A stretch of 64,000 nt of DNA from an uncultured Eubacteriales bacterium (GTDB taxonomy: Bacteria > Acidobacteriota > Aminicenantia > Aminicenantales > Saccharicenantaceae), in the NCBI GenBank assembly GCA_964458655.1, contig CAYWJT010000001.1, positions 4,145 to 68,144 on the forward strand, in the 5' to 3' direction. Under the pieces are notes generated by a model. The model saw only the letters and a program-made list of their open reading frames with translations. It was not told the DNA's origin and ran no database searches. Below, in pieces: positions 4,929-8,611 of the stretch (its first letter is position 1; every line of letters starts with the position of its first letter). The position numbers and the translations under genes were made by a program.

Positions 4929-5315
4929 TTGATCTTCGGGGTAGGCACCGACATCATCGAGGTCGAGCGCGTCGAGGAGAAGATAGCCCGCACCAAGGGC
5001 CTGCGCGAAAAGGTCTTCACCCCGCGGGAGATCGCCTACTGCGAGTCCAAGCACCGGCCGGCCCTGCACTACGCGGCGCGCTTCGCGGCCAAGGAGTCGT
5101 TCCTCAAGGCCATGGGCACCGGCTGGACGGGCGGCCACAAGTTCTCCGATATCGAGGTCGTCGACAACGCCTTGGGCAAGCCCGAGCTCTTCGTCCACGG
5201 CAAAGTCCTCGACTTCTGCCGGGAGCACGGCATCCAACGCATGGAAGTCTCCCTGTCGCACATAAAGGATTACGCCCAGGCCGTGGTCGTCCTGGAGCGC
5301 GACGAACGGACCTGA
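4929..5315 (+). CDS. acpS: Holo-[acyl-carrier-protein] synthase (4'-phosphopantetheinyl transferase)
   Basis: TTG start. MIFGVGTDIIEVERV... matches the AcpS N-terminus (E. coli MAILGLGTDIVEIARI); 128 aa. Confidence 0.8.
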   Translation: MIFGVGTDIIEVERVEEKIARTKGLREKVFTPREIAYCESKHRPALHYAARFAAKESFLKAMGTGWTGGHKFSDIEVVDNALGKPELFVHGKVLDFCREHGIQRMEVSLSHIKDYAQAVVVLERDERT

Positions 5316-5350
5316 CACCGAAGGATAGACAAGGATAGACGAGGAGAAGC

Positions 5351-7054
5351 ATGTCGAACATCGGCTCGTACGAACAAAGAGTGAAGGATTTTTCCTGGGA
5401 GATCGCGGAACGCGAGCTGGGCTGGAAGCCCGGCGACGTCATCAACATCGGCTGGTACTGCACGGACCGCGTCTGCGCCCAGGGCAAGGCCGACAAGGTC
5501 GGCCTGATCTGGGAGAGCCACACCGGCGCGGAGAGAAGGTACACCTACAACGACATCCGCCTGGCCAGCAACACCATCGGGGCCTTCCTGCGCGGCCTCG
5601 GCATCAGGCCCGAGGAGCGGGTCTGCCTGTTCCTGGACAGGGTGCCCGAGCTCTACCTCGGCTTCCTCGGCATCCTCAAGACCGGCGCCGTCGCCCAGCC
5701 GCTCTTCTCGGCTTTCGGCGAGGAGGCCCTGTTCGTCAGGCTGGAGAACGCGGGCACCTCGGCCATCATCACGCAGAAGAAACACCTTTCGAAGGTGCGC
5801 AAGATAATCGACCGCCTGCCGGCCCTGCGCCACATCATCATAGTCGACCATGACGGCGTCTCGCCGCTCAAGGCCCGCGAAGTCGCCTTCTCGCTCGACA
5901 AGGCCGAGCCCGTCGACCGCTTCGAGGTCCACCCGACCACGGCCGAGTCGCCCTCCGTGCTCCATTACACCTCGGGCACGACCGGCATGCCCAAGGGCGT
6001 CAAGCACGTCCATTATTCGCTCGTCTCGCAGTACCTCACGGCCAAGTGGGTCCTGGACCTGCGGGACGACGACATCTACTGGTGCACGGCCGACCCGGGT
6101 TGGGTCACCGGCACTTCCTACGGCATCATCGCGCCCTTCAGCCTGGGCGTCACCCAGTGCGTCCTCGACTCCGGCTTCTCGGCCGAGGCCTGGTACCGGT
6201 TCATCGAGAAGCACCGCGTGACCATGTGGTACTCGGCCCCGACCGCCATCCGCTCCCTGATGAAGGCCGGCGACGAGCTCGTCAGGAAATTCGACCTCTC
6301 CTGCCTGCGCCACCTGGCCAGCGTCGGCGAGCCGCTCAACTCCGAGGCCGTGGTCTGGTCCGAGCGCGTCTTCGGCAAGCCCTTCTACGACACCTACTGG
6401 CAGACCGAGACCGGCTGCATCGTCATCAGCAACTACCCGGGCATGGAGGTCCGGCCGGGTTCGATGGGCAAGCCCTTCCCGGGCATCACCGGCGTCATCC
6501 TCGACCCCCACAGGAACGAACCCTACCCGGCCCCCGGCAAGATAGGCCTGATTGGGCTGAAGTTCGACTGGCCCTCCCGCATGCGGACCTACTGGAACAA
6601 CGAGGAGGCCTTCAACAAGAAGTTCCGCAACAACTGGTACATCACCGGCGACCGGGCCCGCATCGACGCCGACGGCTACTTCTGGTTCGCCGGCCGCGAC
6701 GACGACATCATCAACACCGCCGGCCACCTGGTCAGCCCGTTCGAGGTCGAGTCGGCCCTGCTCGAGCACCCGGCCGTGGCCGAATCGGCCGTGGTCGGCA
6801 AGCCCGACCCGCTCAACCTGGAGGTGGTCAAGGCCTTCGTGACCCTCAAGCCGGGCTTCACGGCCTCGAAGGACCTCGAGCTCGAGATCATGAACTACAT
6901 CCGCAAGAAGCTGTCGCCGCTGGCCATGCCCCAGGAGATCGAGTTCGTCGAGTCCCTGCCCAAGACCCGCAGCGGCAAGATCATGCGGCGCATCCTGCAC
7001 GCCAAGGAGTGGGGCGAGGAGATCGGCGACACTTCCACCCTCGAGAACGAATGA
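5351..7054 (+). CDS. AMP-forming acyl/acetyl-CoA synthetase-like ligase (ANL superfamily, short Acs-like form)
   Basis: YTSGTTGMPKGV is the AMP-binding motif. YWQTETG and ITGDRARIDADGYFWFAGRDDDIINTAGHLVSPFEVESAL resemble the AcsA/Acs signature regions. AGGAGAAG RBS. Confidence 0.8.
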   Translation: MSNIGSYEQRVKDFSWEIAERELGWKPGDVINIGWYCTDRVCAQGKADKVGLIWESHTGAERRYTYNDIRLASNTIGAFLRGLGIRPEERVCLFLDRVPELYLGFLGILKTGAVAQPLFSAFGEEALFVRLENAGTSAIITQKKHLSKVRKIIDRLPALRHIIIVDHDGVSPLKAREVAFSLDKAEPVDRFEVHPTTAESPSVLHYTSGTTGMPKGVKHVHYSLVSQYLTAKWVLDLRDDDIYWCTADPGWVTGTSYGIIAPFSLGVTQCVLDSGFSAEAWYRFIEKHRVTMWYSAPTAIRSLMKAGDELVRKFDLSCLRHLASVGEPLNSEAVVWSERVFGKPFYDTYWQTETGCIVISNYPGMEVRPGSMGKPFPGITGVILDPHRNEPYPAPGKIGLIGLKFDWPSRMRTYWNNEEAFNKKFRNNWYITGDRARIDADGYFWFAGRDDDIINTAGHLVSPFEVESALLEHPAVAESAVVGKPDPLNLEVVKAFVTLKPGFTASKDLELEIMNYIRKKLSPLAMPQEIEFVESLPKTRSGKIMRRILHAKEWGEEIGDTSTLENE

Positions 7055-7084
7055 ACCGAAAAATATACAGCAAGGAGAACGACA

Positions 7085-7345
7085 ATGGGCATTGAAGGAC
7101 TCAAGGGCATCATCCTCGACTACGTCACCAAGGAGTACCTCGAGGACGACAGCGAACCCATCAACTACGAGACGCCGCTCATCTCGGGCGGCATCGTCGA
7201 TTCCTTCTCCATGGTCTCGCTGAAGCGGTTCCTCGAGAACAGGTACGCCATCCAGATCCCGGACGAGCGGGCGACGCCCGACGCCTTCGACTCGGTCAAC
7301 AAGATCGCCGACCTGGTCGAGGAGTTCGTGGCGAAAAAAGGCTGA
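7085..7345 (+). CDS. Acyl carrier protein (phosphopantetheine-attachment domain)
   Basis: 86 aa, acidic, with a GGIVDSFSMVSL serine attachment motif. AAGGAG RBS. Confidence 0.7.
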   Translation: MGIEGLKGIILDYVTKEYLEDDSEPINYETPLISGGIVDSFSMVSLKRFLENRYAIQIPDERATPDAFDSVNKIADLVEEFVAKKG

Positions 7346-7363
7346 GGGCGAGGGGAGCGAACC

Positions 7364-8611
7364 ATGGCATTCAGCGAAAGGACACGAGACACCTATCAGG
7401 CCACCTTAAAGGGCATCCAGGACGCCGGCCTGTTCAAGCGCGAGCGCTTCATCCATTCGCCCCAGGGCGCCGACATCGAGGTCGAGTTCCCGGCCGGCGC
7501 GGGACTGCGCAAGGTCATCAACATGTGCGCCAACAACTACCTCGGCCTGTCCAGCCACCCCGAGGTGGTCAAGGCGGCCCACGAGGGCCTCGAGGTCCGC
7601 GGCTACGGCATGTCCTCGGTCCGCTTCATCTGCGGCACCCAGGACATCCACCGCGAGCTCGAGAACAAGGTCACCGAGTTCCTGGGCACCGAGGACACCC
7701 TGCTCTTCCCCTCCTGCATGGACGCCAACGCCGGCGTCTTCGAGGCCGTCCTGACCAAGGACGACGTCATCATCAGCGACCGCCTCGTGCACGCCTCGCT
7801 CATCGACGGCATCCGGCTCTGCAGCGCCCTTCACGACACCTACAAGCACTCCGACATGGCCCATCTCGAGGAGAAGCTCCAGCTCCACGCCGACAAGCGC
7901 TTCAAGCTGGTCGTGACCGACGGCGTCTTCTCCATGGACGGCGACACGGCCAAGCTGGACGAGATGGTCGCCCTGTGCGAGAAGTACGACGCCATGCTGC
8001 TCGTGGACGATTCCCACGCCTCGGGCTTCATCGGCCGGACCGGCCGCGGCACGCACGAGAAGTACGGCGTCGTCGGCAAGATAGACATCATCACCACGAC
8101 CTTCGGCAAGGCCCTGGGCGGCGCGACCGGCGGCTGCGTCTCCGGGCGCCGCGAGCTCGTCGAGATGTGCCGGCAGCGGGCCAGGCCGTACCTTTTCTCC
8201 AACACCATCGCCCCTGTCATCATCTCGGGCATCCTCAAGGTCATGGAGATCGTCACGCGCTCGACCGAGCGGCGCGACAAGCTGGAGAGGAACTCCGCCT
8301 ACTGGCGCAAGGGCCTGACCGAGGCCGGCTTCATCCTCAAGGAAGGCGACACGCCCATCGTGCCGGTCATGCTCTTCAACGCCAAGCTGGCCCAGGACTT
8401 TTCCATGGCCCTCTACGACGAGGGCATCTACGCCATCGGCTTCTTCTTCCCGGTCGTGCCCCAGGGCCAGGCCCGCATCCGGACGCAGATCTCGGCGGCC
8501 CACGAGACCCATCACCTCGACCGGGCGCTCGAGGCCTTCGTCAAGGTCGGGAAGAAGTTCGACATCTTGGGCAAGACCAAGCAGGAGATCGTCGCCAAGT
8601 ACGGGATGTGA
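7364..8611 (+). CDS. PLP-dependent alpha-oxoamine synthase (Kbl / serine palmitoyltransferase / BioF family)
   Basis: Near-colinear with E. coli Kbl: SVRFICGTQDIHRELE, HASLIDGIRL, TDGVFSMDGD, VDDSHASGF, GQARIRTQISAAH. A sphingoid/aminolipid function (Spt-like) cannot be excluded from sequence alone. Confidence 0.8.
   Translation: MAFSERTRDTYQATLKGIQDAGLFKRERFIHSPQGADIEVEFPAGAGLRKVINMCANNYLGLSSHPEVVKAAHEGLEVRGYGMSSVRFICGTQDIHRELENKVTEFLGTEDTLLFPSCMDANAGVFEAVLTKDDVIISDRLVHASLIDGIRLCSALHDTYKHSDMAHLEEKLQLHADKRFKLVVTDGVFSMDGDTAKLDEMVALCEKYDAMLLVDDSHASGFIGRTGRGTHEKYGVVGKIDIITTTFGKALGGATGGCVSGRRELVEMCRQRARPYLFSNTIAPVIISGILKVMEIVTRSTERRDKLERNSAYWRKGLTEAGFILKEGDTPIVPVMLFNAKLAQDFSMALYDEGIYAIGFFFPVVPQGQARIRTQISAAHETHHLDRALEAFVKVGKKFDILGKTKQEIVAKYGM

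Follow-up and report, generated by a model that had tools for sequence, protein, structure and literature searches.

A possible carrier-protein-dependent route between acetate, glycine, and threonine encoded by a conserved four-gene cassette

Four adjacent open reading frames lie on the + strand between positions 4929 and 8611 of the window, the whole 64-kb stretch of DNA that was analyzed. The features of the locus are as follows:

4827..4856, + strand: putative promoter-like site, sigma-70-like (TTGACC-18 nt-TAAAAT), about 70 nt 5' of acpS, from a consensus scan
4929..5315, + strand: acpS, AcpS-type 4'-phosphopantetheinyl transferase, 128 aa with a TTG start, from Pfam/NCBIfam
5351..7054, + strand: AcsA-type adenylate-forming ligase, predicted acetate:[carrier protein] ligase, 567 aa with AMP-binding and AMP-binding_C domains
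7085..7345, + strand: dedicated 86-aa carrier protein with the motif GGIVDSFSM, from its predicted fold
7364..8611, + strand: Kbl-clade alpha-oxoamine synthase paralog "AOS1," predicted user of acetyl-carrier and glycine, 415 aa, from HMM and PDB matches

As the original prediction had it, these genes are co-directional and closely spaced, with gaps of 35, 30, and 18 nt in order from acpS to AOS1 and with the ribosome-binding sites GAGGAG, AAGGAG, and GAGGGGAG before the last three. The consensus scan found 5 promoter-like sites over 7 kb, versus 0.9 expected from shuffles. Another upstream element, "motif copy C" (GGTGAATGAGTAAACTGTCCCC, positions 4801 to 4822), is real and does lie 106 nt 5' of acpS, but its link to the cassette did not hold. 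Its five copies all lie within the window's first 5 kb, and 80 related loci contain no copy, which makes the motif a genome-specific repeat outside the cassette. These loci come from Aminicenantes, Bacteroidales, Elusimicrobia, Zixibacteria, KSB1, and Cloacimonadales; L081 is an extra locus.

The acpS product is of the AcpS type by its single ACPS domain (PF01648; E 8.5e-19, 68 bits against a cutoff of 25) and by the curated acpS model of NCBIfam, TIGR00516 (101 bits; cutoff, 59.8), to which residues 1 to 124 align. We infer that its role is to make the 86-aa carrier holo. The carrier itself has no Pfam match at an E of 1e-3 or below and no NCBIfam model at cutoff, the best being ACP_for_OlsHI with 55.9 bits (cutoff, 130); it belongs to a divergent family that lacks a curated model. 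Against PDB sequences it matches type II carrier proteins (E 1e-9 to 1e-4). Its AlphaFold model (pLDDT 85) is a helical bundle whose helix II begins with a Ser, as expected of an ACP or type II PCP: Ser40 of the DSF motif, the predicted phosphopantetheine site, opens helix 40-54. The best folds returned by Foldseek are PltL, PigG, and DltC (TM 0.83 to 0.84); this acidic protein (pI 4.3) has the fold of carriers that stand-alone adenylating enzymes load directly. Across 66 sequences, conservation is at least 98% at each position of a 21-residue core, PLISGGIVDSFSMVSLKRFLE.

The ligase narrowly passes model NF003313, "acetate--CoA ligase" (757.8 bits; cutoff, 729), and is 46% identical over its full length to B. 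subtilis AcsA (PDB 9g79, PMC11910552; E 2e-167), with which it shares a short architecture of about 570 aa, the acetate pocket, and a catalytic Lys in a PX4GK motif. The pocket positions V310, T311, V386, and W414 of S. enterica Acs, along with the catalytic K609, are kept across 76 cassette ligases, the exceptions being F for W414 in 7 and I for V310 in 1. These residues, and an acetate channel gene found nearby in relatives (described below), point to acetate as the probable substrate, and the expectation of a short acyl group held up when the pocket was inspected.

What, then, is the thiol acceptor? Acs enzymes strongly conserve Arg526, which stabilizes the thioester-forming (CoA) step (PMC10455477) and is present in all three Acs reference structures (B. 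subtilis AcsA, 8rpk, and S. enterica Acs). In all 76 cassette ligases this position is Leu. The cassette ligase also differs from AcsA in having Ala or Gly for Ser523, Ser for Gly528, and Asp for Val516, in a loop that reads DD(V/I)INTAGHLVSPFE, and in a gene that adjoins a carrier gene (directly 5' of it in 71 of 77 loci). The predicted acceptor is the carrier and not CoA. Seven other Leu-type representatives were looked up, and five of them adjoin a carrier-protein-like gene, three with an MBOAT gene alongside; Leu-type relatives occur in true Dlt-like MBOAT/microprotein clusters. P0243 and P0245, the other two, have no adjacent carrier gene, so a Leu at position 526 is not confined to ligases linked to a carrier. 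In the one Arg-type control whose flanking sequence was long enough, no carrier gene was found beside the ligase. Arg is retained at the 526 position in NRPS A domains, which nevertheless load carriers. The cassette ligase could also still use CoA, given that it passes the acetate--CoA ligase cutoff and retains Arg584, which contacts the CoA 3'-phosphate.

AOS1 passes only Kbl models, NF005394 with 572 bits (cutoff, 460) and TIGR01822 with 570 bits (cutoff, 493), and falls below every cutoff for BioF, Spt, ALAS, and CqsA; it is Kbl-like and not Spt-like, as had been proposed. Its best PDB match is Kbl 7bxp (E 1e-138), and it aligns over nearly its full length with E. coli Kbl (1fc4; E 2e-131). 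Positions N50, H136, S185, D210, H213, T241, K244, and R368 of the E. coli enzyme are invariant in 67 of 67 AOS1 sequences; these are the catalytic positions of the E. coli Kbl structure that were compared, Lys244 being the PLP lysine. The AOS1 clade carries the invariant changes N135V, F112M, S109P, L264C, S268A, H325T, and F309W, an FPxG insertion, and a 14-aa C-terminal tail. Four of these changes, to V, M, C, and A at Asn135, Phe112, Leu264, and Ser268, occur in 67 of 67 AOS1 sequences, whereas N, F, L, and S stand there in every one of the 15 AOS2 sequences and the 4 solved Kbl sequences. Identity is 82% within the clade, about 53% to canonical-like Kbl paralogs, and 54% on average to the four solved Kbl sequences. 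By these sequence comparisons AOS1 forms a clade of its own, in which invariant substitutions adjoin the PLP-stacking His.

How well is the cassette conserved as a unit? The synthase gene is directly 3' of the carrier gene in 66 of 69 loci, and acpS is directly 5' of the ligase gene in 57 of 75, being missing beside the cassette in about 18 of 75. The recurrence of gene order in about 66 to 71 of some 70 to 77 informative related loci far exceeds chance, and the record titles of the loci name at least seven phylum-level groups. The idea of a dedicated unit that combines a PPTase, an adenylating ligase, its own carrier, and a Kbl-type synthase is supported. When Aminicenantes are compared with Bacteroidales, identity is 75% for the ligase, 77% for the carrier, and 82% for AOS1. 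The genes flanking the cassette are not conserved and differ between lineages, but three kinds of neighbor recur. (i) A canonical-like kbl paralog, that is, a second AOS with a higher Kbl-model score, is in the same block in 17 of 80 loci, which agrees with the suggestion that AOS1 is a dedicated paralog. (ii) An AceTr acetate channel gene is directly downstream on the same strand in 17 of 80 loci and in L081. (iii) An L-threonine 3-dehydrogenase gene lies within 8 kb in 8 of 80 loci and in L081. The dehydrogenase is of the SDR type (PDB 7ol1; E 2.5e-121) in L011, L050, L055, L056, L074, L075, L080, and L081, while L023 has a Zn-type Tdh; the gene is immediately 5' of acpS in Zixibacteria and divergent from kbl in L081. 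Neither tdh, a second kbl, nor an AceTr gene is present in the 64-kb window, and the pathway links rest on 10 to 20% of related loci. In those relatives, the three neighbors tie the cassette to threonine, glycine, and acetate metabolism and speak against the self-contained secondary-metabolite or pyrazine module that was first envisaged. No MBOAT, SGNH, or DltX-like microprotein gene was recognized among the examined neighbors in the window or the related loci; Dlt-like MBOAT genes were seen only beside distant Leu-type ligases.

We give about an even chance to the reading that the cassette runs the glycine C-acetyltransferase (Kbl) reaction in a form that depends on a carrier protein, with the assimilatory direction favored. 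The inferred steps would be as follows. AcpS would make the carrier holo. The AcsA-like ligase would adenylate acetate and pass the acetyl group to the phosphopantetheine thiol of the carrier, not to CoA. The Kbl paralog would then interconvert acetyl-S-carrier and glycine with 2-amino-3-oxobutanoate and holo-carrier. Threonine 3-dehydrogenase would provide the link to L-threonine, and external acetate would arrive by the AceTr/SatP channel, both encoded by neighbors in the relatives. In the assimilatory direction, acetate, ATP, and glycine (with NADH) would give 2-amino-3-oxobutanoate and then threonine, an acetate-scavenging route that would by-pass the CoA pool. This direction is favored by analogy to the acs-actP scavenging operon, by the activating ligase relatives, and by the thermodynamics expected of reduced anaerobes. 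For a two-carbon unit, a protein carrier has no explained benefit over CoA, and this counts against the favored reading.

Could the same carrier chemistry run catabolically instead? Tdh would oxidize threonine, AOS1 with holo-carrier would yield glycine and acetyl-carrier, and the ligase in reverse would turn acetyl-carrier, AMP, and PPi into acetate and ATP, with the acetate leaving through AceTr. This would suit the hosts, peptide-degrading anaerobes (the window has M28 and M14 peptidases and an alpha-2-macroglobulin), and the tdh, kbl, and AceTr associations fit either direction, AceTr-family proteins being channels. An AMP-forming Acs working in reverse has reportedly been proposed for ATP synthesis in Syntrophus. 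The catabolic course is nevertheless unlikely: the closest Leu-type ligase relatives are in acyl-donor (MBOAT) systems and must act in the activating direction, a dedicated carrier brings no evident energetic gain over CoA, and oxidation of threonine by NAD+ should, we reason, be unfavorable in reduced anaerobes.

It seems more doubtful still that the cassette makes a signal or specialized metabolite, either aminoacetone, by spontaneous decarboxylation of 2-amino-3-oxobutanoate, or pyrazines or pyrazinones derived from it. The acetyl-thioester and glycine chemistry would be identical, the window lacks tdh, and aminoacetone from Tdh/Kbl is a known pyrazine precursor (PMC9814548). Yet the cassette has no conserved association with tailoring, export, or regulatory genes, its recurrent neighbors are the primary-metabolism genes tdh, kbl, and AceTr, and 75 to 82% identity across phyla is unusual for a specialized-metabolite cluster. 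Just as improbable is an ordinary acetyl-CoA synthetase and a CoA-dependent Kbl that are co-transcribed by chance with a housekeeping acpS and a carrier for some unrelated process. Both enzymes pass curated equivalog cutoffs (acetate--CoA ligase and glycine C-acetyltransferase), and the absence of acpS beside part of the related cassettes means that it may be a housekeeping copy. However, the carrier gene lies between the two enzyme genes in essentially every locus and ranks with the best-conserved genes of the cassette; the higher Kbl-model score of the co-occurring second AOS marks AOS1, with its invariant substitutions, as a distinct paralog; and Arg526 is Leu in all cassette ligases. A long-chain base module like those for sphingolipids or sulfonolipids (Spt or cysteate acyltransferase with an ACP and an acyl-ACP synthetase) is highly improbable: the gene logic resembles bacterial Spt-ACP-acyl-ACP synthetase sets and Bacteroidales are among the hosts, but AOS1 scores 229 to 311 bits against Spt models with cutoffs of 500 to 670 and matches Spt and cysteate-C-fatty acyltransferase in the PDB far less strongly than Kbl, the acetate-type ligase pocket retains the Trp by which Acs is limited to C2-C3 acids, and no reductase or ceramide synthase gene is conserved nearby.

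The cassette shares parts with several known systems. Like the Tdh-Kbl pathway (E. coli kbl-tdh; C. necator Kbl 7bxp), it has a synthase that is Kbl by HMM and keeps the checked catalytic residues, and relatives have tdh and a canonical-like kbl beside it. Unlike that pathway, it adds a dedicated carrier, a PPTase, and an acetate-activating ligase, and its synthase, of a separate clade, is predicted to take its acetyl group from the carrier, not from acetyl-CoA. In citrate lyase, CitC uses ATP to ligate acetate to the thiol of a cofactor bound to the gamma-subunit ACP, and the lyase uses the resulting acetyl-S-carrier. The cassette would likewise form an acetyl-S-carrier from acetate and ATP, but the CitC system has an unrelated ligase family, a dephospho-CoA derivative as its prosthetic group, and a different lyase chemistry. 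The Caulobacter and Sphingomonas sphingolipid sets combine Spt with a dedicated ACP that is charged by a dedicated ATP-dependent ligase. An alpha-oxoamine synthase with its own ACP and ligase is common to these sets and the cassette, in which, however, the synthase is of the Kbl clade, the ligase is of the short-chain Acs type, and downstream lipid genes are lacking. In the loading step of D-alanylation, a stand-alone adenylating enzyme, DltA, charges a small acidic carrier, DltC, made holo by AcpS (PMC9338922, PMC12148441). The cassette's acidic carrier has a DltC/PltL/PigG-type fold and the predicted loading logic is shared; the cassette differs in having an Acs-like ligase in place of a DltA-like one, in its predicted acyl group, acetate, and in its acceptor enzyme, which is soluble and PLP-dependent, acts on C-C bonds, and is not an MBOAT.

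No carrier-based cassette for threonine, glycine, and acetate metabolism is described in the literature or family libraries searched. Overall, the genes may represent, at somewhat less than even chances, a CoA-independent branch of central threonine/glycine/acetate metabolism whose carrier is charged directly from free acetate and which, as a mobile module, would have spread among anaerobes of at least seven phylum-level groups, as read from record titles. If so, "acetate--CoA ligases" with Leu526 would be acetate (short-acyl):carrier-protein ligases, leaving thousands of database entries misnamed, and the same ligases would in addition supply acyl groups to as yet undescribed Dlt-like MBOAT systems.

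The order, strand and families that the original prediction gave for the four cassette genes are correct, family scans and coordinates being in agreement:

4929-5315, + strand: acpS, 128 aa with a TTG start, matching Pfam ACPS and above the cutoff of the NCBIfam acpS model
5351-7054, + strand: adenylate-forming ligase, 567 aa, with AMP-binding and AMP-binding_C domains
7085-7345, + strand: small carrier protein, 86 aa, with a DSF motif
7364-8611, + strand: alpha-oxoamine synthase, 415 aa, Kbl-type by HMM

The intergenic gaps are 35, 30, and 18 nt. The ligase, carrier, and synthase genes each have a good Shine-Dalgarno sequence, and a sigma-70-like site lies upstream of the cassette at 4827-4856. 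An Rfam scan found no regulatory RNA nearby. Judged by sequence, each part comes from a known family. The ligase scores 757.8 bits on NF003313 ("acetate--CoA ligase"), narrowly over the cutoff of 729. The synthase reaches 572 and 570 bits on two equivalog models for Kbl, the glycine C-acetyltransferase (cutoffs of 460 and 493), and falls under the cutoff on every BioF, Spt, ALAS, and CqsA model.

How widely is this arrangement found? A genome scan with the 86-aa carrier, using one genome per species, returned at least 406 related stretches, of which the best 80 loci were kept. According to their record titles, these loci come from Aminicenantes and other Acidobacteriota, Bacteroidales, Elusimicrobia, Zixibacteria, KSB1, Cloacimonadales, and further groups, and tblastn of the window proteins against them shows that relatives share the one-strand gene order. 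Among these best 80, 77 have room for the ligase, and in 71 of those it comes immediately before the carrier; the synthase comes right after the carrier in 66 of 69, and acpS right before the ligase in 57 of 75. When 907 ORFs from the 80 neighborhoods were clustered, with greedy gene calls that were polluted by high-GC antisense ORFs, no further gene proved to be kept across lineages. Since the flanking genes differ between lineages, the cassette is the unit. Identity between Aminicenantes and Bacteroidales is 75% for the ligase, 77% for the carrier, 82% for the synthase, and 49% for acpS. This conservation is unusually high, and the pattern is consistent with a strongly constrained module that spreads horizontally. 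Locus L058 (3613-7249) has two carrier genes, one on each side of the ligase, and in L057 and L076 an insertion of about 5 kb separates ligase and carrier.

The carrier has no Pfam match, its NCBIfam acyl carrier protein (ACP) matches are all subthreshold, and NCBIfam (June 2026) holds no model for it, while naming the ligase and synthase as ordinary CoA enzymes. The best NCBIfam match, the carrier of the ornithine-lipid OlsHI system, was rejected (55.9 bits against a cutoff of 130); that system employs a GH3-like enzyme. In metagenomes, a protein search found more than 8,000 carrier clusters at 90% identity, named only "acyl carrier protein" and lacking a Pfam domain. Across 66 sequences, no position of a 21-residue core, PLISGGIVDSFSMVSLKRFLE, is less than 98% conserved. 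The AlphaFold model, predicted with confidence (pLDDT 85), is a three-helix carrier in which Ser40 of the DSF motif starts helix 2, and the protein is acidic (pI 4.3). The best structural matches of the model are PltL, PigG, and DltC (TM 0.83 to 0.84), carriers that are made holo by PPTases and loaded directly by stand-alone adenylating enzymes, and whose fold the window carrier is predicted to share.

Among solved structures, the ligase is closest to a genuine acetyl-CoA synthetase, Bacillus subtilis AcsA (9g79), with 46% identity and E 2e-167. In an alignment of 76 cassette ligases with AcsA, 8rpk, and Salmonella enterica Acs, the acetate-pocket residues V310, T311, V386, and W414 and the catalytic K609 are retained, apart from W414 being F in seven. 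Arg526 (S. enterica numbering) is Leu in all 76, and further changes are S523 to A or G, G528 to S, and V516 to D. Arg526 is highly conserved in Acs, where it contacts the adenylate phosphate and stabilizes the thioester-forming conformation; its replacement impairs the CoA step (PMC10455477). The substitution is not a mark unique to the cassette, for a wide subfamily carries Leu526, as an exhaustive search across 1.84 billion representative proteins revealed.

What do other members of this subfamily sit beside? In five of seven other Leu-type representatives, a carrier-protein-like gene directly adjoins the ligase; no carrier was seen in the genomic context of the remaining two, P0243 and P0245. 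Three of the five also have an MBOAT gene, and two of those three a microprotein of 38 to 43 aa ending F-x-Y-x-x-F, which makes these two contexts Dlt-like. Homology to the window carrier can be detected in the carrier of one MBOAT cluster (L085; 26% identity, E 2e-9). There were two Arg-type controls: P0241 (L094) lies on a contig too short to inform, and P0242 (L095) has no carrier alongside, its 78-aa neighbor reading as a membrane protein. The Leu526 subfamily is thus mostly carrier-linked in these seven contexts, and from this association we infer that the cassette ligase is one of a subfamily of Acs-like enzymes that charge carriers with short acyl groups, acetate in this case.

The Dlt-like clusters (L085, 1265-4630, and L092, 2388-5653; also L090 and L091) contain an MBOAT protein, a DltX-like microprotein of the kind described, a DSF carrier of 79 to 82 aa, and a Leu526-type Acs-like ligase in place of DltA. 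According to a 2025 paper, MBOAT/SGNH pathways except Dlt work without a carrier protein (PMC12148441), so these clusters may be undescribed carrier-dependent systems for short-acyl (acetyl?) acylation of polymers. As for control of the cassette ligase, the window encodes a Pat-like protein acetyltransferase at 39570-42344 (- strand), with NDP-forming acyl-CoA synthetase domains and a GNAT domain; about 12 relatives, most of them in the Saccharicenans group (family 8), have a member of the same family 4 to 5 kb away from the cassette. The PX4GK lysine motif, the acetylation site for Pat-like enzymes, is preserved in the ligase, and regulation by acetylation is therefore possible.

The synthase, AOS1, aligns over almost its full length with the Kbl enzymes of Escherichia coli (1fc4, E 2e-131) and Cupriavidus necator (7bxp, E 1e-138), and its mean identity to four solved Kbl enzymes is 54%. 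Eight positions, picked on the basis of the E. coli Kbl structure, are invariant (N50, H136, S185, D210, H213, T241, K244, and R368, E. coli numbering). By HMM and sequence AOS1 is a Kbl, yet it forms its own clade, 82% identical internally and about 53% identical to a second, canonical-like paralog. The clade has invariant substitutions (N135V, which adjoins the PLP-stacking His, F112M, S109P, L264C, S268A, H325T, and F309W) and invariant additions (an FPxG insertion and a 14-residue C-terminal extension). Global charge, a proxy for a carrier-docking surface, does not differ meaningfully between AOS1 and canonical-like Kbl. The original prediction held that a canonical kbl elsewhere in the genome would make this copy a dedicated paralog, and relatives bear this out: in 17 of the best 80 of at least 406 loci, a second synthase lies within the same block, usually directly upstream of acpS, and scores above AOS1 on the Kbl model (610 to 625 bits). 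The solved Kbl enzymes are closer to it (59%) than to AOS1. It is 74% identical between two compared phyla and therefore travels with the module.

The neighbors of the cassette in relatives include genes of threonine and acetate metabolism. An acetate channel gene, AceTr/SatP (272 to 274 bits, cutoff of 50), comes directly after the cassette, on its strand, in 17 of the best 80 of at least 406 loci. SDR-type tdh, encoding threonine 3-dehydrogenase (Tdh), is within 8 kb in seven of the same 80, and Zn-type tdh in an eighth (L023); we estimate that chance would place a single-copy gene so near in about 0.5% of loci (some 16 neighbors out of about 3,000 genes). In Zixibacteria, tdh is immediately upstream of acpS. 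A Bacteroidales locus on a 3.0-Mb contig (L081) reads tdh <> kbl-acpS-ligase-carrier-synthase-AceTr, its tdh being of the SDR type (7ol1, E 2.5e-121). L023 itself has acpS, carrier, and synthase without the ligase, its tdh lying 3.4 kb upstream. A classical SDR (adh_short, 293 aa) is found 2 to 5 kb upstream of the cassette in 11 Aminicenantes-type loci (e.g., L003, 2152-3033), often accompanied by an MFS transporter, and was not seen in the other phyla of related loci.

The 64-kb window has no tdh, no second kbl, and no AceTr. Relatives carry AceTr or an M28 peptidase directly after the synthase, and since a TPR/BNR gene (8744-10744) takes that place here, it seems to have been inserted locally or to have replaced what was there. 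Just past it, an internal 143-nt piece of the synthase gene (8118-8260) is repeated at 10791-10933 (90% identical), and a 45-nt piece of the downstream spacer (8662-8706) at 10901-10945 (87%). By its sequence, this repeat of some 143 to 150 nt looks like a relic of a second synthase copy.

Other features of the window were also noted:

69-90 (-), 117-138 (+), 1085-1106 (-), 3448-3469 (-), and 4801-4822 (+): five copies of the 22-nt intergenic repeat GGTGAAYGAGTAAACYGTYCCC
3469-4302, - strand: ArsM-like methyltransferase (NCBIfam)
4318-4659, - strand: AbrB-type protein (NCBIfam)
15304-16332 and 16620-17648: two paralogous 342-aa DUF5128 beta-propeller genes, inside a low-GC stretch

The motif copy C placed upstream of the cassette by the original prediction is real, being the repeat copy 106 nt before acpS, but it is not part of the system, as none of the 80 related loci contains it. 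All five copies lie within the window's first 5 kb, with none expected by chance; two of them, at 69-138, are inverted relative to each other with 26 nt in between, and the repeat is, on sequence grounds, specific to this genome. The AbrB-type gene, divergent from the cassette, scores 103.5 bits on the NCBIfam model "HgcAB-associated protein HgcC" (cutoff of 70) and is adjoined by the ArsM-like gene (346.8 bits, cutoff of 263); the window ORFs examined included no hgcAB genes. The last 84 nt of an alkaline-phosphatase gene region (14831-14914) are duplicated about 2.8 kb downstream (17662-17745, 92%). The low-GC stretch (52 to 57% against about 65%) lies between the copies and resembles an insertion. 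At 44482-44660 (- strand), upstream of a TonB-dependent receptor gene (42428-44425), is a cobalamin riboswitch (85 bits).

How might the cassette work? AcpS would convert the carrier to its holo form, and the ligase would make acetyl-AMP and pass the acetyl group to the carrier thiol. The Kbl paralog would then interconvert acetyl-carrier plus glycine and 2-amino-3-oxobutanoate, with Tdh joining the reaction to threonine and AceTr joining it to external acetate. The assimilatory direction, from acetate to threonine, is favored for three reasons: it parallels the acetate-scavenging operon acs-actP, ligase relatives in acyl-donor systems work in the activating direction, and Tdh/Kbl would be thermodynamically inclined toward threonine in reduced anaerobes. 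The Tdh/Kbl pair is reportedly reversible (Marcus and Dekker, 1993), and a catabolic direction, in which ATP is regained from AMP and PPi, is a serious rival. So is a route that ends in aminoacetone or a pyrazine. An ordinary Acs beside an ordinary Kbl, as the database names would have it, is hard to square with a carrier gene invariably placed between the two enzymes, a canonical-like kbl co-resident in relatives, and the invariant substitutions. A sphingolipid or sulfonolipid module is excluded by the HMM scores and the acetate pocket of the ligase.

Carrier-dependent alpha-oxoamine synthases are known: Spt can work with an ACP and an acyl-ACP synthetase of its own, while BioF uses pimeloyl-ACP. 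A full-text literature search found no account of a cassette of Acs-like ligase, carrier, and Kbl, and no acetate:ACP ligase of Acs type; neither an acetate ligase of Acs type that charges a private carrier nor a Kbl-clade enzyme that accepts acetyl from it appears to have been described. If the proposal is true, the interconversion of acetyl-thioester plus glycine and 2-amino-3-oxobutanoate, among the simplest reactions of primary metabolism, has a protein-carrier version, and the question arises why cells keep a two-carbon unit outside the CoA pool. The systematic labels "acetate--CoA ligase" and "glycine C-acetyltransferase" on these genes would need correction, and the signature DD-V/I-INTAGHLVSPFE would mark carrier-loading Acs-like enzymes. 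The cassette is widespread among uncultured anaerobes of sediments and digesters, and for Aminicenantes and similar lineages it would imply a testable assimilation of acetate into threonine, or an ATP-yielding breakdown of threonine.
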